In this document: positions 3,621-36,360 of the stretch, piece by piece
How positions within the stretch are numbered: the first letter of the stretch is position 1
Layout of the letters: each line of letters starts with the position of its first letter
Source: a virus
Taxonomy: Duplodnaviria > Heunggongvirae > Uroviricota > Caudoviricetes
Length of the DNA: 37,809 nucleotides
Direction: 5' to 3' (one strand)
Virus record (IMG/VR): IMGVR_UViG_2602041644_000008
Location: 1 to 37,809 of that record
The notes under the pieces: generated by a model
What the model saw: the letters and a program-made list of their open reading frames with translations, nothing else
The model's database searches: none
Told to the model about the DNA's origin: nothing
Program-made: the position numbers and the translations under genes

Positions 3621-5936
3621 TCATAAAATAGATTTCGTCTTTGTAACAATAATATCTACAAAATCACCTGCAGATATAGCTGATGGTACTGTATCTGCAA
3701 GAGTAATCTTTTCTGAAGAGATGTTTTGCACATCTAATAATTTATTTTCAACCCCATCCGTATATACCAATTTGACATCACTGAATGGAGGGTAATAAGT
3801 GACTGTTCCTTGGTATACATATATTTCAATGCCTGAAATTGATTTCACTACATACCTGCCCCTTACAAGATTAATTTTGAGTTCAGATAAATCGGTTTTA
3901 TAACAGGTAATTCCTGAACCAATGTTAGCCATACTAATATCAGTATCACTATAATAAGTAATTGCTTTTCCTTGTTTTAAGGTGAAGTTATCTTTGCTTT
4001 TCCTTGGCAAGGATGTGCTATTTTTGTAATATCTACCAGTTAAGCATAGCCATGAAAATGCAGTATTCGCTACATTACCACCAGAATACACAGCTAAACG
4101 AATTGCACTAACTGGAACCCCTTCATTATTAATCCTGATCTTAATGGAAGAAATGTTAGCAACAGTAGCATATCTATGGTTAGATGAATCCCATTGCATA
4201 GAAGAAGTTATTGCTTCTGTTTGTGAAGTTATGACATTCCCATCTCCATCTAATGCATACAGGTAAATGCGAAACGATGCCGTATCTGCTGAGAATGTAA
4301 ACATATCACCATTTCTTACTGGTACATCTCCAGATTCCCATAACAACCCAAAATTCCGCATAAAAGCAAACTTAGAAGAAACTAGGTGACGGATATTATA
4401 TAAACCATCTACATCTGTTTGATATGCTAATACACCAACTTCTCCATTGTTGGCACTGGATATAAATGGGGTGTTAGCATTTAAAGAAAACAATGTTACT
4501 TCATCGGATATATTTTCCTGAACATGAAATACTGCATTCCCCTTGCCATTATCAGTTACCTCTACATAAGTGTAAGGTGATGGATTGTATGGTTCATTTG
4601 TATAGTAAGGAGAACTTAACCATGAAGCCTCAATTGAGTTATTCCACGTATATTCACCAAAGTTAATTATCAACTGTTGGTTAGTTGGGGATGATGGATA
4701 TCGTTCAAAACGAAACCCGTAGAAGTAATTGTTATCACCTCTTTGAATATCAATTTTACCTGCCCCCTCCATAGTTCCACCATAAAACTTATTGTGGTTA
4801 TGATGATATGGATTATCAGCGAAAATTATATTATTCGTACGATTCAGATAAAAATAGTTTTCATTTATCCATCCGTTCTCAACTCCAAGAAAATGAATTG
4901 TATCGACCTTTTTCAGGTTAAAGGTTGAGTATGCTATTGAATAATCCGTCGATGCCACCGAAGCATTATAATTTGCATATAACTGTAAGTAGTCGCAACG
5001 CTCAATGTTTATATGCTGCCCTTTTGCCCCGATAATACGAATATCCGGTGTCGTTTCAGATGAAATACCAGAATTTCTGATAATCGTTCCGAAGTTTTGT
5101 CTTGGGTTGTTAGGGTTTGATGCATTCCCGCCAAGCAATACCCCTATTCCTGAGTGGGATATGGTAAAAACAGCATTGGTCATTTCGAGGCTGACATTAC
5201 GAAGATTTAATGTCTCCGTAATAATAAAATTACCTTCCGCTCGTAATGTTCTGGATGATTCTCGTGCATATTCTGCAGCCAGGATCAATGCAGATGTATC
5301 ATCTGTTATACCATCGCCTTTTGCCCCAAAATCGCAAACACTAACGGTGTCTCTCATCTTATCCTGGAACGTTCGGTATACTGCTCCAGAACCATACTGA
5401 ATAAACCAACCAAAACCACCAACAACCCCGGCGATTGCAGCATCGACATAATTACGCATTGAGCGATTATTTACAGCGTCCTGCTCAAGTGATGGATCTG
5501 CAAGGTTAGAAATTTTGTTTTGCTTTGCATCGTAATATTTTGCAAGCAAAGATGGTTTCATCAATGCACGTCTGAACCACCCAAAACATTGCTGGATCAG
5601 CATCGTCAGGTAGTCAAAAGCATCTTCATGCACTTCGGGGAAAAATTTTCCCTGATTGCGAAGATCTGTCTCCTGCACTACATCAAGCACACGATCTATC
5701 GTAATTCGCCAGCCAGCAGCAAGCGGAGACGGCAGAACCACTGAACCGCCACTATAAGTGCCCGCCCCAGTTACCGTATAACCGGTATCCAGAACCAATT
5801 CTGTTACGTTCCCGTTCAGGTCAGACACCTGAACAACCAGGTCTGATTTTCTGAAAATTCGAAAAGTATACGGAAACGATGTCGTAACGCCGTTACCTGT
5901 GTATTCGTTGTGGTCAACTTCGGTTGAGACCGTCAT
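3621..5936 (-). CDS. Tailspike/tail fibre: T7 gp17-like N-terminal adaptor domain plus right-handed beta-helix (pectate-lyase-3-like) depolymerase domain
   Basis: N-terminus EYTGNGVTTSFPYTF..DLVV..DY..LPSPL..DLRN matches the gp17 N-terminal pattern. Internal CDFGAKGDGITDDTSAL is a beta-helix motif. C-terminal two-thirds is AT-rich (receptor-binding module). Confidence 0.8.
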   Translation of the reverse strand: MTVSTEVDHNEYTGNGVTTSFPYTFRIFRKSDLVVQVSDLNGNVTELVLDTGYTVTGAGTYSGGSVVLPSPLAAGWRITIDRVLDVVQETDLRNQGKFFPEVHEDAFDYLTMLIQQCFGWFRRALMKPSLLAKYYDAKQNKISNLADPSLEQDAVNNRSMRNYVDAAIAGVVGGFGWFIQYGSGAVYRTFQDKMRDTVSVCDFGAKGDGITDDTSALILAAEYARESSRTLRAEGNFIITETLNLRNVSLEMTNAVFTISHSGIGVLLGGNASNPNNPRQNFGTIIRNSGISSETTPDIRIIGAKGQHINIERCDYLQLYANYNASVASTDYSIAYSTFNLKKVDTIHFLGVENGWINENYFYLNRTNNIIFADNPYHHNHNKFYGGTMEGAGKIDIQRGDNNYFYGFRFERYPSSPTNQQLIINFGEYTWNNSIEASWLSSPYYTNEPYNPSPYTYVEVTDNGKGNAVFHVQENISDEVTLFSLNANTPFISSANNGEVGVLAYQTDVDGLYNIRHLVSSKFAFMRNFGLLWESGDVPVRNGDMFTFSADTASFRIYLYALDGDGNVITSQTEAITSSMQWDSSNHRYATVANISSIKIRINNEGVPVSAIRLAVYSGGNVANTAFSWLCLTGRYYKNSTSLPRKSKDNFTLKQGKAITYYSDTDISMANIGSGITCYKTDLSELKINLVRGRYVVKSISGIEIYVYQGTVTYYPPFSDVKLVYTDGVENKLLDVQNISSEKITLADTVPSAISAGDFVDIIVTKTKSIL

Positions 5937-6039: not shown

Positions 6040-6056
6040 ATTACCTTTCAGGTAAT
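6040..6056. promoter_or_regulatory. Operator dyad ATTACCTTTCAGGTAAT
   Basis: Perfect 6-N5-6 inverted repeat. Lies between the divergent tailspike gene and the 6133 ORF. Confidence 0.6.
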
Positions 6057-6112: not shown

Positions 6113-6132
6113 ATTGCATGGAGAAGATTAAG

Positions 6133-6390
6133 ATGCAGCAGTATCACTATCCACTGGAAGACGGATTTACCGAAAGGATTCACACGCCGGGAGGCGTCAG
6201 GTCACTGGTGGAGGGATCGCACTTGATGAAATTACTCCGGGATCTCGATAAGGATGGATTTAATGTCGATGGCCCACTTGCCGAACTGACTGCACTGATT
6301 AACTACGTCACCAGCTCACAGATGTCTATGCAGGATCTGCAAACACATCTCGACTATTGTGCCGAACAATTACGAAAACAAACCACATAA
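6133..6390 (+). CDS. Small protein (85 aa) paralogous to the C-terminal domain of the adjacent Bro-N protein; candidate SOS-induced antirepressor
   Basis: RBS GGAGAAG 7 nt upstream. Residues TPGGVRSLVEGSHLMKLLRDLDKDGFNVDGPLAELTALINYV..DLQTHLDY align with Bro residues SPSGVLGLTENSLLMNLLNQLQEDGHDVSGAAAELTTMFCYI..DIQTHAEY. LexA box upstream. Confidence 0.5.
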   Translation: MQQYHYPLEDGFTERIHTPGGVRSLVEGSHLMKLLRDLDKDGFNVDGPLAELTALINYVTSSQMSMQDLQTHLDYCAEQLRKQTT

Positions 6391-6412
6391 AGAAAAGGCC
6401 GCTAGAGCGGCC
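6391..6412 (-). terminator. Rho-independent terminator (mainly minus strand) after the 6412..7140 gene
   Basis: GGCCGC-TCTA-GCGGCC followed by TTTTCTTT on the minus strand. Confidence 0.5.
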
Positions 6413-7140
6413 TATCGTTTCGCTTTGTGCTCGTCCCAGCACGTTTTGCACCATGCCATTAAGCCATCCGCATTTTGATTATTAGGGTAAAAGCTGGTTC
6501 GTTTTCTGCGGACATTACAAATTGGGCACCACTTCATATGGCGTGTATTCTTTGGACCATCGAGACACCTTGCACACCACTTAGTCAATCCATCTGGATT
6601 TTTTGACGATTTCCTGAATTTTTCATATGGAAGGTTTATTCTGCATCGCAAGCACTGCTTGCTACCACTTGAAACTCTGTTAGCTGATTCTTCTTTTGGC
6701 GGCGATACAGAAGGTATTCTTGCTGGCTCTGATACTGCCTGAGGTGCTTTTTTAGATGACTGAGACGATATGTCATCACCAGGGAATCGTCCATGATATG
6801 CCGGACGCGTTGACACTCCAGGTGGAAGCTCTGCTGTAAATGGCTTTGGCTGAATCAGTTGCCTCTCTTTTGCTAACTCCTGCTGTTTATAATATGTCTG
6901 GATTACCGCACTATCATAAGCAGGAGGTGCGGAAATATTAGGCGCATTACCTCCAGTTTTTTGAAACTGAGTAGAGGTGTGTTCTATCACCTGTGTACGA
7001 TTAATCGTTATCTCCCCATCTTCGGTCTTTATCGTTTTGTTATGATTAACGACCGTACGATCAGAGATCTTAGTCTTGTTCTGGTTGATAACATAAATAA
7101 TCACCGCAACCACACCAACAACTATCCAGAAAACTTCCAT
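6412..7140 (-). CDS. Membrane-anchored protein with Pro/Ser-rich linker and C-terminal tandem CxxC zinc-ribbon repeats (unknown function)
   Basis: Strong RBS GAGGAAAAG. N-terminal TM FWIVVGVVAVIIYVI. C-terminus has two repeats: CLRCRINLPYEKFRKSSKNPDGLTKWCARC and CPICNVRRKRTSFYPNNQNADGLMAWCKTC. Low GC. Confidence 0.6.
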   Translation of the reverse strand: MEVFWIVVGVVAVIIYVINQNKTKISDRTVVNHNKTIKTEDGEITINRTQVIEHTSTQFQKTGGNAPNISAPPAYDSAVIQTYYKQQELAKERQLIQPKPFTAELPPGVSTRPAYHGRFPGDDISSQSSKKAPQAVSEPARIPSVSPPKEESANRVSSGSKQCLRCRINLPYEKFRKSSKNPDGLTKWCARCLDGPKNTRHMKWCPICNVRRKRTSFYPNNQNADGLMAWCKTCWDEHKAKR

Positions 7141-7159
7141 TGCTTTTCCTCACAATAAC

Positions 7160-7176
7160 ATTACCTTAAAGGTAAT
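7160..7176. promoter_or_regulatory. Operator dyad ATTACCTTAAAGGTAAT
   Basis: Perfect dyad 20 bp upstream of the 6412..7140 start, in a divergent regulatory region. Confidence 0.6.
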
Positions 7177-7252
7177 ATCTTGCTTTCAGGTGATCAAGCG
7201 TTAAACGCAATCAACCAAATAAGGTTGATTTTAATATTTCTTCGCGTTTATC

Positions 7253-7269
7253 ATTACCTTTTAGGTAAA
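7253..7269. promoter_or_regulatory. Operator dyad ATTACCTTTTAGGTAAA
   Basis: Second copy in the divergent region, 93 bp from the first. Adjacent inverted repeat TCAACC-N6-GGTTGA (7211-7228). Confidence 0.55.
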
Positions 7270-7535
7270 TTTACATCGCACTCCTCTTGTGCCATAGTAA
7301 TTGGGCACTGGCAAAATCCAGTGCCGGGATTGGTCTCCCGGATTACTACAGAGGCACATATGCCGCATAAGCGGTTTTTTTATGTGTAAAGCGCACCTAT
7401 TCTATGGTGAGCTGTGTGGGGGCACCGAAAGGTGCGCCGGGTTCCTTTGTAGCCGGTAAGACCAACTCTGCACAGTTCACCACCATCTGATTGGTCTCAG
7501 CGGTGGTGATTAACCTAACTACAAAGGTGATCGCC

Positions 7536-8228
7536 ATGAATACCAAACCTTCCATCTTTTCCTTTGAGTCATCCTGCCAGATCCGTATGTTCATGATTGA
7601 CGGAGAACCTTGGTTTGTCACCAAAGATGTGTGCAATGCTTTGAATATTGATGTTACACAAGCGAGAAAACTTGATAAAAAAGGCTGGAACAAAAAGGGG
7701 CTGTATTCAATACAGACCCCTGGTGGAATACAAGAACTATCCATCGTTTCAGAATCAGGTCTCTACATCCTTATTCTGCGTTGCAAAGAGGCAATGACAG
7801 AGGGAACGAGAGCGTTCAGATTTCTTGAATGGGTTACAGGTGAGGTTCTTCCTCAGATCCGCCGCACCGGAAGTTACATTAAAAACTCGCTCCCGCAGGA
7901 AGAACGCATAAAGATGGTTGCCGACCAGGTAGCCAACGCCACAGCATCAGCAATGATGCAGGCAATGAAGATAGAGAACAAAACCTACAGTGCCCCACTG
8001 AAGCCCGGCTACCGTAGCCTGATTCATTCTCCGTCTGGTGTTCTCGGCCTGACGGAGAACTCACTGCTGATGAATCTGCTGAACCAGTTACAGGAAGACG
8101 GGCACGATGTATCGGGCGCGGCGGCGGAGCTGACCACCATGTTCTGCTACATCGTCGGTGTGAGCAAATGCCTGCGTGATATCCAGACCCACGCGGAGTA
8201 CATCAACGACAAAGCAGGATTCTTCTGA
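7536..8228 (+). CDS. Bro-N domain protein (antirepressor-like, BRO family)
   Basis: Start moved to MNTKPS, which follows AAGGTG-N7-ATG. Bro-N signature FSFE...IRMFMIDGEPWFVTKDVCNALNI. C-terminal domain is paralogous to the 6133 ORF. Confidence 0.7.
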   Translation: MNTKPSIFSFESSCQIRMFMIDGEPWFVTKDVCNALNIDVTQARKLDKKGWNKKGLYSIQTPGGIQELSIVSESGLYILILRCKEAMTEGTRAFRFLEWVTGEVLPQIRRTGSYIKNSLPQEERIKMVADQVANATASAMMQAMKIENKTYSAPLKPGYRSLIHSPSGVLGLTENSLLMNLLNQLQEDGHDVSGAAAELTTMFCYIVGVSKCLRDIQTHAEYINDKAGFF

Positions 8229-8299: not shown

Positions 8300-8316
8300 A
8301 TTACCTTAAAGGTAAA
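8300..8316. promoter_or_regulatory. Operator dyad ATTACCTTAAAGGTAAA
   Basis: Immediately upstream of the promoter/RBS of the 8358 ORF. Confidence 0.55.
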
Positions 8317-8357: not shown

Positions 8358-8684
8358 ATGACAAAACTTGGATTCGTGATGAGAGGTCCGGTAAGAAGCG
8401 GAACTCATGCAAAGCGTAGCAAGAGTCGTATTTTTACTGGTAAGGTTGTAGCACGTAAATCAGCTATTGGCTCGTTCAATAGTGAAAATGCGGCATTGCG
8501 CCATATTTTTATCAGCACAAAGCCAAGAGCATCCGCTGATGTGCATACAATGTCTATTCCTATCACAAAGAATATCAAGCGGATAAAAAAGCTCTCATCT
8601 GCAGAATCAAAAGAGATATCTTTCCGCCAGCTTAACTCATTAGAAACGCATATGAAGGAAGAGGAATTCGATGTTTTTGAGTGA
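8358..8684 (+). CDS. Basic 108-aa protein, first gene of a two-gene operon (putative antitoxin partner)
   Basis: RBS GGAGATTAAAG-ATG. Overlaps the downstream gene by 14 nt. No recognisable domain. Confidence 0.35.
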   Translation: MTKLGFVMRGPVRSGTHAKRSKSRIFTGKVVARKSAIGSFNSENAALRHIFISTKPRASADVHTMSIPITKNIKRIKKLSSAESKEISFRQLNSLETHMKEEEFDVFE

Positions 8685-9183
8685 GTATAGCGGGAAGGTT
8701 ATACCTACTGGTGAGTTTAAAACTGATGACTTTCTGATTTCGCTAAAAGATGCTTTTAAACAACACTGGCGTCATGGTCATCATCCTGATCTGGGAAAAG
8801 ATACTCTTTTTGAAAGACCAGACGAAGTATTAGGCTTCCATCTCAGAAAGGTTCATGTCAATATTGGTGAATATGCATCATATTCATACTCATGTACTGA
8901 ACAGTGTTGGGATGAGTGGTCATATGGATTGATTGATGAACAAGGAAATTACAGGCCAAAACCAACCAGTAACGCATATCTCATATATGCAGTCAATGAA
9001 ATAAGAGATGCAGCCTTACTAGCTTATTGGGACCCGCCCGCACACACCAAAGCTAACGCAAAAGTTTGGATGGATTCCGTATTGAATTTCACAAAATTAT
9101 TTCATGAACGAACTAATACAGCTCCACTTAGTAGAAATGTTTATCCGTGGGATTATTCGTACAAATCCAAAAAGCCTGCATAG
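8671..9183 (+). CDS. YafO-like toxin family protein (candidate type II TA toxin)
   Basis: RBS GGAAGAGGA. Segments HPDLGKDTLFERPDE, FHLRKVHVNIGE, NAYLIYAV and ALLAYWDPPAH parallel E. coli YafO motifs (LPDIFGRDALYDD, FERVAHIHLANE, AHLVYC, LLIAILKPEPH). Comparison is from memory only. Confidence 0.4.
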   Translation: MFLSEYSGKVIPTGEFKTDDFLISLKDAFKQHWRHGHHPDLGKDTLFERPDEVLGFHLRKVHVNIGEYASYSYSCTEQCWDEWSYGLIDEQGNYRPKPTSNAYLIYAVNEIRDAALLAYWDPPAHTKANAKVWMDSVLNFTKLFHERTNTAPLSRNVYPWDYSYKSKKPA

Positions 9184-25433: not shown

Positions 25434-25450
25434 ATTACCTTTCAGGTAAG
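25434..25450. promoter_or_regulatory. Operator dyad ATTACCTTTCAGGTAAG next to a TTGACA -35 box (25413-25418)
   Basis: Intergenic, between the start of the minus-strand late genes and the plus-strand leader/tRNA unit. Confidence 0.5.
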
Positions 25451-25771: not shown

Positions 25772-25848
25772 GTGGCATTAGCTCAGTTGGACAGAGCAAC
25801 CGCCTTCTAAGCGGTTGGTTGCAGGTTCGAATCCTGCATGCCACGCCA
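25772..25848 (+). tRNA. tRNA-Arg (anticodon UCU)
   Basis: Cloverleaf: acceptor GTGGCAT/ATGCCAC, D-arm GCTC..GAGC, anticodon stem ACCGC/GCGGT with loop CTTCTAA, T-arm GCAGG-TTCGAAT-CCTGC, 3' CCA encoded. Resembles argU. Confidence 0.85.
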
Positions 25849-27969: not shown

Positions 27970-28563
27970 TGATTACCATCCTGACGTTCTTTGAGTCGCT
28001 TCCTGGCTGCCGCTATGCGATCAGCAATTGTCACATTCACATTAACATCCAGGCGTTCTTTGAACGCGTTGACATCAACATGCTTACCAATCAGCTCAAG
28101 GTTCTTCACCTTGTCAGGCCATTTAATTTTTTTGAGGATTGTCTCTATCGAATCCTCGTTCATGTTCATGATGGTCGATGACAGATCAAAGCCACTAAGC
28201 GTAGTGCGCCAGATTTTCGGCCACTCACGGATTGGTTTAAGGCTCCCATCGTCGTTGAGGATGTCGATCACGTCCATCTGGTCGATCTCCACCAGGCGCA
28301 TGAGAACGTAATCAGCACTGACGCGCATTCGTTTGTTGCGCTCCTCCATCAACTCGGCAATCCGTTTTTGAATGCGTTCATCGCGCATCATGACACTGGC
28401 TTTAACTGCCGCTGTATTTGGGGAGAATCCTGCGTTAATCGCTGCCTGAGTTTGGTTTTCAGGCGTTTTGATGTATGACTGGCAATAAGCCTCCTGCATT
28501 GTTGTTAGTGGCTTAAATTGCGTTGATTTGCGTTTATAGGTTTTAGGTTCAGCAGGCATCATA
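27966..28563 (-). CDS. Terminase small subunit
   Basis: Start moved to MMPAEPK; the tracked N-terminal 26 codons translate the operator/terminator repeats. HTH-like N-terminus and basic C-terminus. Directly upstream of terL. Confidence 0.65.
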
Positions 28564-28595
28564 ACCACCGTGGTAATAGTTACCGTTGTGGTAAT
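28561..28595. promoter_or_regulatory. Two adjacent operator-like dyads (ATAACCACCGTGGTAAT and GTTACCGTTGTGGTAAT) over the terS start region
   Basis: 6-N5-6 dyads matching the genome-wide motif. Located between the upstream terminator and the terS ATG. Confidence 0.5.
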
Positions 28596-33176: not shown

Positions 33177-33193
33177 TTTACCCATGAGGTAAT
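33177..33193. promoter_or_regulatory. Operator dyad TTTACCCATGAGGTAAT
   Basis: Abuts the start codon of the 32830..33174 gene. Confidence 0.5.
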
Positions 33194-33238
33194 TAAAAAC
33201 CACATAAGACACGAAATCAATAGATCTTAGAACATTTT

Positions 33239-33255
33239 ATTACCTAGCAGGTAAT
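33239..33255. promoter_or_regulatory. Operator dyad ATTACCTAGCAGGTAAT
   Basis: Perfect dyad between the post-P terminator and the DUF1064 gene. Confidence 0.55.
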
Positions 33256-34904: not shown

Positions 34905-35174
34905 TCAGCTTGAATGTTGTGGGGAGGAATTAATCATGATCTGCTTAATCTCTGCCCTGATACGACGGTTTGATTCCATGGTGCACTCAACACAGTGTCC
35001 GTTGTAAACCCAGCGTTCACTGTCATGTCCGTGCTTACATGGTTTTCCGGTGTAGTAGCGTTTAAGTCCGCGCTTTGCGGCATCAATACGTGTAATGATT
35101 TCCATGGTAAGCCCTGTTATTAGTATTGGGATTACGGTCATTTTGTGCTGACACAAAAAAAAGATCAACCACAT
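34905..35174 (-). CDS. Small Cys/His-rich (zinc-ribbon-like) protein, CII-position gene; start uncertain (M1, M12 or M24)
   Basis: KPCKHGHDSERWVYNGHCVEC motif. First gene after the cro terminator and an operator. Confidence 0.4.
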   Translation of the reverse strand: MWLIFFLCQHKMTVIPILITGLTMEIITRIDAAKRGLKRYYTGKPCKHGHDSERWVYNGHCVECTMESNRRIRAEIKQIMINSSPQHSS

Positions 35175-35184
35175 TTGGTTATTT

Positions 35185-35201
35185 ATTACCTTTGAGGTAC
35201 G
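35185..35201. promoter_or_regulatory. Operator dyad ATTACCTTTGAGGTACG
   Basis: Between the cro terminator and the zinc-ribbon gene. Confidence 0.5.
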
Positions 35202-35210
35202 AATAGATAT

Positions 35211-35233
35211 GAAAAGACCGCCGGGTGGCGGTC
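35211..35233 (-). terminator. Terminator after the cro-like gene (tR1-like)
   Basis: Minus strand GACCGCC-ACCC-GGCGGTC followed by TTTTC. Confidence 0.5.
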
Positions 35234-35255
35234 TACAGAGGGTTGTAGCTGGATA

Positions 35256-35486
35256 TCATGAGTAGAAGAAGTATGCCAGTTCTGCTTTTGAGTGCAGCCA
35301 TTGTCTTGATTTACAGGCTTTAAAAAGCCCATTCATCAATACCTTACCTGGCATTTTGCGCTTACCTGTTAAGTGAGTCTGGATATAGTGACTCGTCGTT
35401 CCGGCTTCCTGTGCGAAGGCTTCACGCTCATCCGGAGTAAGTGCAAGCCAGTGCTTTTTGAAATCGAAATGTCCGTTATCGCTCAT
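35256..35486 (-). CDS. Cro/CII-like HTH regulator (first gene of the early operon divergent from the repressor)
   Basis: HTH segment FAQEAGTTSHYIQTHLTG resembles the CII-type HTH. Position equals cro. Confidence 0.55.
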   Translation of the reverse strand: MSDNGHFDFKKHWLALTPDEREAFAQEAGTTSHYIQTHLTGKRKMPGKVLMNGLFKACKSRQWLHSKAELAYFFYS

Positions 35487-35521
35487 AGCTATTGCCTGAT
35501 ATTTATTTCAGATAATAAATA

Positions 35522-35538
35522 TTCACCTATAAGGTAAC
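35522..35538. promoter_or_regulatory. Operator O1 TTCACCTATAAGGTAAC (cro-proximal)
   Basis: One of three tandem dyads in the 154-bp cI-cro intergenic region. Confidence 0.6.
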
Positions 35539-35552
35539 AAAAATCAAGGATA

Positions 35553-35569
35553 GTTACCCATGAGGTGCA
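35553..35569. promoter_or_regulatory. Operator O2 GTTACCCATGAGGTGCA
   Basis: Centre 31 bp from O1. Confidence 0.55.
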
Positions 35570-35586
35570 TTTACCTGTTGGGTAAT
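35570..35586. promoter_or_regulatory. Operator O3 TTTACCTGTTGGGTAAT (repressor-proximal)
   Basis: Abuts O2. Lambda OR-like tripartite arrangement. Confidence 0.55.
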
Positions 35587-35640: not shown

Positions 35641-36225
35641 ATGAAAAGTATCCAGGACGTCCGCAGGCAAAATCTCAACGACTTGATCGACCGTGAATTC
35701 AATGGTGTTCAGACGCGGATGGCTGAAAAACTTGGAACTCAGGCAAATCTGGTAAACCGCTGGGCTCTTGGCAAGAAGGTTATCGGCGACCAGGTTGCGC
35801 GAAAAATTGAAGCTGCCGCCAATAAACCCCGTAACTGGCTTGATATCGATCGCTCGCTTTCTCAGGAAGGTTTTCAGCCTGTCGGACCAAGCGACATTGG
35901 TCAACTGGCGGCTCACAACCTGGAACGCTGGATGAGCGAAAGCCGCGACCTTTCAACGCAGGGAAAACTTCACCGCGCATCCGGCGTCGCCCAGGTAACA
36001 ATCAGCCGCCTGTTAAACAATGAGGTCAGCGTTTCCATTTCCACCCTGGAGAATGTTGCATCCGCATTTGGGCGTCACGGATATGAATTACTGATTCACC
36101 CGCACGACCCCGCGACTATCAACTATGACCGCTCGCGCTACGCATTGTTACCTGAAACAGAGAAGGCAAAGATCGAAAGTTACATTGAATTTGTCATCAA
36201 CCAGAACGAAAAAAACAAACAATAA
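35641..36225 (+). CDS. Prophage repressor, two XRE-type HTH domains, no S24/LexA-like peptidase domain
   Basis: HTH1 TRMAEKLGTQANLVNRWALGKK. HTH2 LHRASGVAQVTISRLLNNEVSVSISTLENVASAFG. No Ser/Lys autocleavage module. Divergent from cro with three operators. Confidence 0.65.
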   Translation: MKSIQDVRRQNLNDLIDREFNGVQTRMAEKLGTQANLVNRWALGKKVIGDQVARKIEAAANKPRNWLDIDRSLSQEGFQPVGPSDIGQLAAHNLERWMSESRDLSTQGKLHRASGVAQVTISRLLNNEVSVSISTLENVASAFGRHGYELLIHPHDPATINYDRSRYALLPETEKAKIESYIEFVINQNEKNKQ

Positions 36226-36281: not shown

Positions 36282-36298
36282 ATTACCTAACGGGTAAT
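36282..36298. promoter_or_regulatory. Operator dyad ATTACCTAACGGGTAAT
   Basis: Perfect dyad upstream of the promoter for the recombination operon. Confidence 0.55.
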
Positions 36299-36316
36299 TT
36301 TTTTAACTCATATCTA

Positions 36317-36360
36317 TTGACATCAAACCAGATACGCATAATTATTACCTCAACGGTAAC
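36317..36360 (+). promoter_or_regulatory. Early promoter (TTGACA-17-AATTAT) with operator ATTACCTCAACGGTAAC (36344..36360) over the -10/+1 region
   Basis: Consensus -35 hexamer. Dyad overlaps the -10/start region. Drives the plus-strand genes from 36379 onward (PL-like). Confidence 0.5.

Follow-up and report, generated by a model that had tools for sequence, protein, structure and literature searches.

An accessory membrane gene of an epsilon15/phiV10-like prophage encodes a predicted double zinc-ribbon protein with a possible role in phage competition

Anatomy of the gene and its product

We analysed a stretch of 37,809 nucleotides (nt), IMG/VR virus record IMGVR_UViG_2602041644_000008 (hereafter the window), which is an epsilon15/phiV10-like (Uetakevirus-type) prophage of E. 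coli, i.e. a temperate podovirus. Our subject is a single gene on the minus strand at 6412–7140 (the target gene). It is a prophage accessory membrane gene with a clean anatomy and a function inferred from its context, which tentatively points to nucleic-acid binding at the membrane in competition with other phages. The gene and the parts of its product are as follows.

6412–7140, minus strand: coding sequence of a membrane-tethered double zinc-ribbon protein (PHROG 6762), 242 residues plus stop, ATG start
7147–7151, minus strand: Shine-Dalgarno sequence GAGGA, 6 nt 5′ of the ATG, as read from the sequence
7081–7134, minus strand: N-terminal transmembrane (TM) helix, residues 3–20, a predicted N-out/C-in signal anchor (from AlphaFold2 and the flanking Lys/Arg)
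6961–7077, minus strand: juxtamembrane block, residues 22–60, motif T.KTEDGE..I.RTQV, conserved in alignments A1 and A4
6670–6960, minus strand: variable linker, residues 61–157, recognised by its Pro/Ser/Gln/Ala content and low model confidence
6544–6669, minus strand: zinc ribbon 1, residues 158–199, with Cys163/166/189/192 and motif K.C..C...LP...F..SSK.PDGLTKWC..C
6415–6543, minus strand: zinc ribbon 2, residues 200–242, with Cys205/208/231/234, motif KWCP.C..RR..TSFY.N...DGL..WCK.C and a basic C-terminal helix

An earlier note, drawn up from the letters of the sequence, had read the protein as one TM helix, a Pro/Ser/Gln-rich linker and two tandem cysteine ribbons. AlphaFold2, run on a 28-sequence alignment, recovers the helix at residues 3–20 with confidence (predicted local distance difference test, pLDDT, ~90), and the linker is much as described, with Pro, Ser, Gln and Ala making up 45% of residues 61–157. 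The two ribbons also stand, since the protein's cysteines (163, 166, 189, 192, 205, 208, 231 and 234) form CxxC-22-CxxC twice and the zinc domain is modelled with pLDDT >90, but the repeat is not of about 30 residues as had been stated; its period is 42. Ribbon 1 and ribbon 2 share 35% identity over 40 residues without gaps (pairwise E = 1e-7), and all eight cysteines are invariant or near-invariant in alignments of 28, 38 and 39 sequences. Each ribbon is three- to four-stranded with a short helix at its end, and the C-terminal domain modelled alone has a mean pLDDT of 88. Between the TM helix and the ribbons, up to about residue 155, most 10-residue blocks fall below pLDDT 65 and several segments below 50. 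Here the juxtamembrane strands 26–39 and 42–55 are drawn as a long beta hairpin (pLDDT 43–53) and residues 77–94 as a helix, both at low confidence.

Membrane topology and charge

The topology was assessed over 58 family members. On the N-terminal side of the TM segment the adjoining 15 residues hold 0.05 Lys/Arg on average, against 3.6 in the 15 on its C-terminal side, and the residues ahead of the hydrophobic segment typically include an acidic one. The positive-inside rule thus fits an N-out/C-in orientation in 57 of the 58; in the remaining one, P0053, an upstream start has probably been mis-called. Because of this asymmetry in flanking charge, the target protein is predicted to be N-out/C-in, a placement supported by the rule, with two residues outside and the ribbons in the cytoplasm, where the earlier note had put them. 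A cytoplasmic location would also agree with the occurrence of the same ribbon in cytoplasmic enzymes.

The conserved cysteines all lie in the C-terminal domain, which is strongly basic throughout the family. Its net charge ranges from +9 to +18, with +8 in the C-terminally truncated member P0033, and in the target protein it holds 20 Lys/Arg against 6 Asp/Glu (isoelectric point 9.9).

The ribbons resemble an accessory module of nucleases

Compared with the PHROG profiles, the ribbons match the N-terminal parts of families named ‘endonuclease VII’, ‘HNH endonuclease’ and ‘endonuclease’ (e.g. phrog_1035, phrog_2633 and phrog_2255), as well as a primase family and a ‘Lar-like restriction alleviation protein’ family. 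In the last case (phrog_5558, E = 2.7e-9) residues 201–241 of ribbon 2 align to profile positions 7–47 of 130 rather than to the full profile. Ribbon 2 is most similar to the N-terminal ribbon of P0214, a protein in which the ribbon (residues ~12–45, KWCPKC...DGLGVWCKTC) is followed by a Pfam Endonuclease_7 domain (60–137). Elsewhere the module is found in arrays of up to ten copies and fused to ResIII/DEAD and AAA_11/12 helicases (superfamilies 1 and 2), to HEAT repeats and to winged helix-turn-helix domains. The structural searches agree with this picture. The best matches are to the Cys4-zinc beta-beta-alpha-Me nucleases Hpy99I and PacI, with which the ribbon shares the Cys4-zinc-stabilised beta-beta-alpha scaffold of HNH/beta-beta-alpha-Me nucleases, and BFVD returned 41 matches at E ≤ 1e-3, of which those with names are mainly HNH or endonuclease VII proteins.

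The catalytic residues of such enzymes are missing. In the same three alignments neither ribbon has an invariant His or Asn, the catalytic His included, and invariance is limited to Cys, Trp, Asp, Lys and Gly/Leu. A Pfam scan of the target protein gave neither an HNH nor an Endonuclease_7 (PF02945) match and nothing above threshold. On these two grounds the protein is not a canonical nuclease; it carries a nuclease accessory module, presumably substrate-binding, without the catalytic domain. Given the kinship to accessory modules of nucleases and helicases and the extreme basic charge, binding of nucleic acid, probably DNA, is the most likely and most economical role for the ribbons, and the domain is accordingly predicted to bind both zinc and DNA.

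The nearest Pfam family is Stc1 (PF12898), which the target protein matches at 21.0 bits (E = 5e-4, profile positions 52–83), below the gathering cutoff of 24.8 bits; several ribbon-bearing relatives score above this cutoff. The NCBIfam scan of the target protein returned nothing above threshold, and with the C-terminal profile as query the PDB sequences yielded matches at chance level only (E > 0.3). The earlier impression that the protein belongs to no characterised family is therefore upheld by Pfam (Stc1 below threshold), NCBIfam and PADLOC (nothing) and by a PHROG whose function is unannotated. As a side observation, the newer accession PF27269 is pre-computed in Pfam on the short ribbon-only relatives P0161, P0187, P0191, P0192 and P0201.

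Family and conservation

Target residues 1–242 align to positions 1–242 of the 242-position PHROG 6762 profile (E = 1.1e-150). The family is thus already catalogued, without functional annotation. A word-indexed search found 33 relatives, every one ‘hypothetical’, in Escherichia, Superficieibacter, Enterobacter, Citrobacter, Salmonella, Serratia, Providencia, Pectobacterium and Buttiauxella, and an exhaustive search by profile brought up 1663 proteins (E ≤ 1e-3). The full layout, in proteins of 180–240 residues, is common to about 45 of the representatives at 50% identity. These members conserve the TM segment, the juxtamembrane T.KT..GE..I.R.Q, the eight cysteines and the signature F...DGLTKWC, while the linker varies freely in both length and sequence. 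The family spans Enterobacterales, Aeromonas, Acinetobacter, Pasteurellaceae and Neisseria (~45 clusters at 50% identity), with variants in Neisseria and Pasteurellaceae that have another hydrophobic N-terminus or a single ribbon. The recurring family feature would therefore seem to be a hydrophobic N-terminal segment followed by a linker and one or two ribbons.

Among 5426 complete E. coli genomes the gene is present in 129 (2.4%), always full length, chromosomal and annotated by PGAP as ‘hypothetical protein’. A profile search of genome contigs with alignment A1 matched four species-representative genomes, and a search of the plasmid collection matched no copy. Between four E. coli alleles the ratio of non-synonymous to synonymous substitution rates (dN/dS) is 0.07–0.33 overall, 0.00–0.14 in the zinc domain and 0.2–1.6 in the linker; the counts are small but consistent. 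The full-length PHROG match, the 129 intact E. coli copies and the low dN/dS show that the open reading frame (ORF) is a real gene under purifying selection and not a chance ORF. The copy in phage TL-2011b (JQ011317, locus L001, 6512–7600), annotated merely as a misc_feature ‘similar to hypothetical protein’, was considered as a pseudogene; on translation its 242-codon ORF is intact and 97% identical to that of the window, and this was rejected.

A literature search found nothing on this protein family. The ribbon itself is a known, poorly studied phage module; as far as could be found, its duplication and fusion to a membrane anchor appear in no earlier description.

The gene is carried on a cassette at a cargo hotspot

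The local gene order is tailspike (minus), p19-like gene (plus), target gene (minus) and Bro-N antirepressor (plus), and the features around the target gene are as follows.

3621–5936, minus strand: tailspike gene
6118–6390, plus strand: small p19-like gene
6386–7220, no strand: cassette of ~835 bp (terminator, gene, operator/promoter), delimited by alignment with phiV10 and TL-2011b; not in phiV10
6396–6413, no strand: G+C-rich terminator hairpin, AGGCCGCTCTAGCGGCCT then a T-run, between the convergent target and p19-like genes
7536–8228, plus strand: Bro-N antirepressor gene (ORF 7491–8228, ATG at ~7536)

Besides the gene, the cassette comprises the terminator hairpin and 80 bp upstream of the gene, with clean junctions relative to phiV10. 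Its edges (6386 and 7220) are marked by an 11–12 bp imperfect direct repeat, AACCA(C/A)ATAA(A/G)G, which runs over the stop codon of the p19-like gene. The flanks are matched in most related phages, but the gene is missing there; split megablast matches came from 14 related phages. In E. coli the p19-like gene is found in 529 genomes against 129 for the cassette, so that ~24% of the carriers of this marker have it. Another phage, EC.W1-9 (L096, 2014–2929), carries a different two-gene cargo of 168 and 139 residues at the cassette site, and because of this replacement the site is regarded as a cargo hotspot. Absent from close relatives at this site and equipped with its own terminator and a candidate promoter, the gene has the hallmarks of a moron, and its distribution is confined to phages.

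Homologues in other genera lie in the same accessory region, between the tailspike gene and genes for large ejection or virion proteins. The Serratia homologue adjoins a KilA-N/ANT gene, that of Providencia follows a p19-like gene and that of Pectobacterium follows a Bro-N gene and a HicAB toxin-antitoxin pair. A 244-residue ORF at the equivalent position in the Pectobacterium locus (L015), considered as a second homologue, is an unrelated protein. In other IMG/VR phages the homologue often adjoins small predicted secreted proteins or lipoproteins, and elsewhere homologues adjoin terminase or tail genes; that of Buttiauxella lies on a small island that also holds a CI-like repressor and recombinases. 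Neither the EC.W1-9 cargo proteins nor the secreted or lipoprotein neighbours have a Pfam or PADLOC match. When loci were compared across phage types, no conserved partner gene was found to travel with the homologues. The association with Bro genes that the earlier note had proposed to look for is thus partial: Bro-N is directly adjacent in E. coli and one or two genes off within the same accessory region in Serratia and Pectobacterium, but it is not universal, as the homologues next to terminase, tail or cI repressor genes show.

Immediately 5′ of Bro-N, Rfam identifies in tandem an isrK RNA (7305–7381, plus strand, 74.7 bits) and a C4 antisense RNA (7400–7487, plus strand, 78.2 bits). Together isrK, C4 and Bro-N form a module like the c4-ant genes of P1 immI, divergent from the target gene and with an operator copy ahead of it. 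This isrK-C4 region is present in 467 E. coli genomes, against 129 with the cassette.

Several further features of the window were recorded. The p19-like ORF duplicates, as a free-standing gene, the C-terminal domain of the Bro-N protein encoded next to it; both proteins match phrog_450, phrog_15539 and, weakly, an anti-repressor PHROG, and the p19-like gene has its own operator copy at 6041. Downstream of Bro-N lies an overlapping gene pair (8358–8684 and 8671–9183, both plus strand) with an operator copy ahead at 8301. The second product weakly resembles the YafO toxin, at 19.7 bits where the cutoff is 25, and the pair may be toxin-antitoxin-like cargo. An 89-residue ORF (34905–35174, minus strand) between the replication and cro-like genes encodes a small Cys/His protein of a kind common in phages, with the motif YYTGKPCKHGH...G.C..C. 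A tRNA gene (25772–25845, plus strand; Rfam, 73.2 bits) lies inside the prophage, with an operator copy upstream at 25435.

Expression appears to be coupled to immunity

The two regulatory features upstream of the target gene are as follows.

7160–7176, no strand: 17-bp palindrome ATTACCTTTAAGGTAAT (minus-strand reading), an operator copy with perfect arms, 21 nt upstream of the target ATG
7169–7197, minus strand: candidate sigma-70 promoter TTGATC-17-TACCTT, found by eye, whose -10 element is the left half of the operator

The palindrome TTACC-N5-GGTAA occurs at 16 sites in the window, 11 of them exact, where 0.67 would be expected by chance. Sites are located at 6041–6055, 7161–7175, 7254–7268, 8301–8315 and 25435–25449, with further ones in the regions 28562–28594, 33178–33254, 35186–35585 and 36283–36359. 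Copies cluster between a repressor-like gene (35641–36225; PHROG families of transcriptional regulators and repressors) and a cro-like ORF divergent from it (35256–35486), and single copies precede several early or accessory units, including each transcription unit of the accessory region. The copies of a Pectobacterium prophage are clustered likewise. From the clustering between the repressor-like and cro-like genes we infer that this palindrome is the immunity operator of the phage; the copy ahead of the target gene would put that gene under repressor control. The genome paper of epsilon15 is said to have proposed ATTACC...GGTAAT repeats as repressor operators. The dispersed sites of the window also resemble the many scattered C1 operators of phage P1.

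The arrangement upstream of the gene recurs in other phages. The Serratia homologue is preceded by TTGAAC-17-TACCTT, the Pectobacterium homologue by TTGACA-16-TACCTT and the homologues of Enterobacter/Citrobacter-type IMG/VR phages by TTGACC-17-TACCTT, in each case with the -10 element in the palindrome. The Providencia homologue has the same layout with another palindrome, TTAACC-N5-GGTTAA. A design of -35 element, 16–17 bp spacer and -10 element within a palindrome thus appears to be conserved in four genera, and the promoter stays a candidate. If it is correctly placed, the gene would be off under full repressor occupancy and on at infection or induction. As a separate observation, eleven homologue loci without TTACC/GGTAA (L013, L080–L083, L085, L087, L088, L091, L093 and L095) have a conserved palindrome CTG-N9-CAGG, e.g. 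CACTGTTTATCTGTCAGGATG, some 60–100 nt 5′ of the ATG, which looks like a LexA box with a spacer of 9 rather than 10 nt.

A different arrangement is found in two lambda-like prophages. In Aeromonas phiARM81mr the homologue lies 18 nt downstream of the CI gene, in the same orientation. In Acinetobacter sp. HY1485 an S24-peptidase repressor gene is followed by a hairpin and, 20 nt later, by the homologue on the same strand, which leaves no room for a promoter of its own. Such a place in the cI operon points to a product that the lysogen tolerates and from which it benefits. The common thread of both arrangements would be a coupling to the immunity repressor.

Interpretation and alternatives

We propose that the target gene is a self-contained accessory cassette, or moron, of a temperate epsilon15/phiV10-like podovirus. 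Its product would sit in the inner membrane, with a flexible linker of ~100 residues holding two basic Cys4 ribbons at the cytoplasmic face. These ribbons may be a catalytically empty version of the module that stands beside the catalytic domains of endonuclease VII/HNH proteins and helicases, and would bind nucleic acid, probably DNA, near the membrane. Expression would be tied to immunity through a weak operator-embedded promoter in epsilon15-like phages or by co-transcription with cI in the two lambda-like prophages. When another phage infects, the tethered ribbons could capture or block the DNA emerging from the membrane, and the outcome would be superinfection exclusion or inter-phage competition by a single protein, through capture alone and with no other effector. 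Four features together suggest a nucleic-acid-binding module in phage-phage competition: the basic charge, the nuclease/helicase company, the siting in a hotspot and, in two distant prophages, the place in the cI operon. Such a role is also the only proposal that fits the hotspot company (toxin-antitoxin pairs, antirepressors and envelope morons), the cI co-transcription in two lineages and the predicted early expression in podoviruses at once. We regard an immunity-linked, membrane-tethered nucleic-acid binder that excludes or competes with other phages as the likeliest of the readings, a real possibility that stops short of being probable. It is more doubtful that the family represents an undescribed single-gene class of exclusion, in which nuclease-derived ribbons without a catalytic partner, tethered to the membrane and wired to immunity, would seize the leading end of injected competitor DNA, and whose gene would have spread on a mobile cassette between unrelated gammaproteobacterial phages.

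The earlier note had guessed at exclusion or a nucleic-acid-binding membrane sensor, and both ideas seem plausible. Its more specific suggestion of injection sensing or abortive infection (Abi) found no particular support, as the periplasmic part is two residues long, there is no effector domain and PADLOC gave nothing. The note had also overlooked the operator in which the candidate promoter is embedded.

Several observations weigh against the proposed DNA-binding exclusion factor. A consensus promoter scan called no minus-strand promoter upstream of the target gene. In the epsilon15-like lineages the operator lies over the predicted -10 element, which may keep the gene silent in a stable lysogen; such silence fits an early lytic function at least as well as lysogen defence. 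An operator-occluded promoter also conflicts with the cI-operon arrangement, unless the product is useful in both states. Furthermore, the PHROG and PADLOC searches revealed no homology to a known superinfection-exclusion (Sie), Abi or defence protein: no defence model of PADLOC-DB v2 was matched, the only hit being TniQ at E = 1.8, and the Sie-like PHROG 8545, used as a proxy for known Sie proteins, reached E = 0.88 over the TM region only. Lastly, the tandem zinc finger of eukaryotic Stc1 mediates protein-protein contacts, so that DNA binding by a ribbon of this kind is not guaranteed.

This last point leads to the alternative of a membrane-tethered adaptor, whose Stc1/RING/LIM-like ribbons would recruit or sequester a partner protein without binding DNA; the partner could be a regulator of the lysis-lysogeny switch or a host enzyme of defence or repair. 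The Stc1 similarity (21 bits in the target against 24.8, and above the cutoff in relatives) and the recurrent neighbours (Bro-N, KilA-N/ANT antirepressors and the isrK-C4 immI-like module) are consistent with it, and the conserved juxtamembrane block could be a second interaction surface. We nevertheless consider the adaptor unlikely, as a charge of +9 to +18 throughout the family and the company of nucleases and helicases better suit nucleic-acid binding, and as the neighbours change with phage type and include no conserved partner gene. Decidedly unlikely is a protein that, like phi29 p16.7, organises the DNA of its own phage at the membrane and would anchor replication, complete genome entry or position packaging after derepression. 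About three quarters of the p19-like-positive E. coli genomes lack the gene, which is therefore dispensable for the phage life cycle, its distribution over unrelated phage types is patchy, and a position in the cI operon of two prophages makes little sense for replication. What speaks for such an organiser is the overall architecture, which is that of p16.7, the basic zinc domain and a predicted repressor-occluded promoter that would give early expression alongside other operator-controlled early units.

Predicted early expression under repressor control would also suit a factor for host takeover or anti-defence, which ties the nucleoid or a nuclease to the membrane in the manner of T4 Ndd or alleviates restriction. 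The location in an accessory hotspot and the match of ribbon 2 to the Lar-like phrog_5558 fit this idea, but that match is confined to a generic ribbon, no anti-defence family in PADLOC or the literature corresponds to the protein, and co-transcription with cI in two prophages speaks against a function harmful to the host; we judge it improbable. The protein might also be inserted the other way round, N-in/C-out, with its eight cysteines in periplasmic disulfides and the domain blocking the incoming ejection machinery as a classical Sie or Imm protein would. Many known exclusion proteins do act in the periplasm, and the hotspot neighbours are often predicted secreted proteins or lipoproteins. 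This orientation is very improbable, however, in view of the positive-inside statistics (57/58 members), the difficulty of translocating a domain of ~82 residues with a net charge of about +14, the fact that cytoplasmic nucleases and helicases carry the same ribbon, and the regular Cys4 knuckles modelled by AlphaFold2 at pLDDT >90. An active membrane-bound HNH/beta-beta-alpha-Me nuclease that cuts incoming DNA would be in keeping with the structural matches to Hpy99I and PacI and with the HNH proteins in BFVD. It is nonetheless extremely improbable, given ribbons with no invariant His or Asn at catalytic positions, the lack of a Pfam HNH or Endonuclease_7 match in the target, and the fact that genuine nucleases carry the ribbon as a separate module upstream of the catalytic domain (as in P0214).

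If the anchor, tether and DNA-binding zinc module do meet at the cytoplasmic face, they would make up a minimal means of interfering with genome entry; alternatively, DNA might be anchored at the membrane or a partner protein sequestered there. The family is small yet widespread and unannotated, so that one function would name all of it. Moreover, if the candidate promoters are right, the accessory cassettes of epsilon15-like phages acquire the operator of their host phage inside the promoter, an example of a moron wired into phage regulation.

Comparison with known systems

The closest molecular likeness is to the N-terminal ribbon of endonuclease VII and HNH proteins, which has the same CxxC-22-CxxC spacing and F...DGL..WC..C signature and a fold matching viral HNH/endonuclease VII proteins and Hpy99I/PacI. 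The target protein differs in having neither a catalytic domain nor a conserved catalytic His, and in that its ribbon is duplicated and set on a membrane anchor.

In its layout the protein recalls phi29 p16.7, the membrane-anchored DNA-binding organiser of phage DNA replication known from the work of the Meijer and Salas laboratories. Both begin with a TM helix, which a spacer connects to a cytoplasmic domain at the C-terminus that is expected to bind DNA, and the AlphaFold2 helix and the positive-inside statistics give the target protein the same N-terminal anchor and cytoplasmic C-terminal domain. However, homology between the two is not expected, since the DNA-binding domain of p16.7 is helical and the corresponding domain of the target is a zinc ribbon. 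In addition, p16.7 is conserved in its phage group, while the target gene is a patchy cassette found in the cI operon of two prophages.

With regard to genomic position, the Aeromonas and Acinetobacter homologues lie downstream of cI, as does lambda rexAB, a classical site of lysogen-expressed genes. The podovirus homologues, between tailspike and ejection-protein genes and beside an antirepressor module, are placed like P22 sieA in the immI/tailspike region. The products of rexAB and sieA are membrane proteins, as is the target protein, but there is no similarity in sequence or fold; the target has a single TM segment with almost all of its mass in a cytoplasmic zinc domain, and its exclusion phenotype is only predicted. 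Known superinfection-exclusion or Imm-type proteins mostly work from the periplasm or inside the membrane, and a molecular mechanism has been assigned to few of them.

Lastly, the divergent neighbour of the target gene is an isrK-C4-Bro-N module that shares its operator motif and corresponds to the immI (c4-ant) region of P1 and P7 and to isrK of Salmonella Gifsy-1. The target gene, in contrast, lies outside this module and is absent from most of the phages that carry it.

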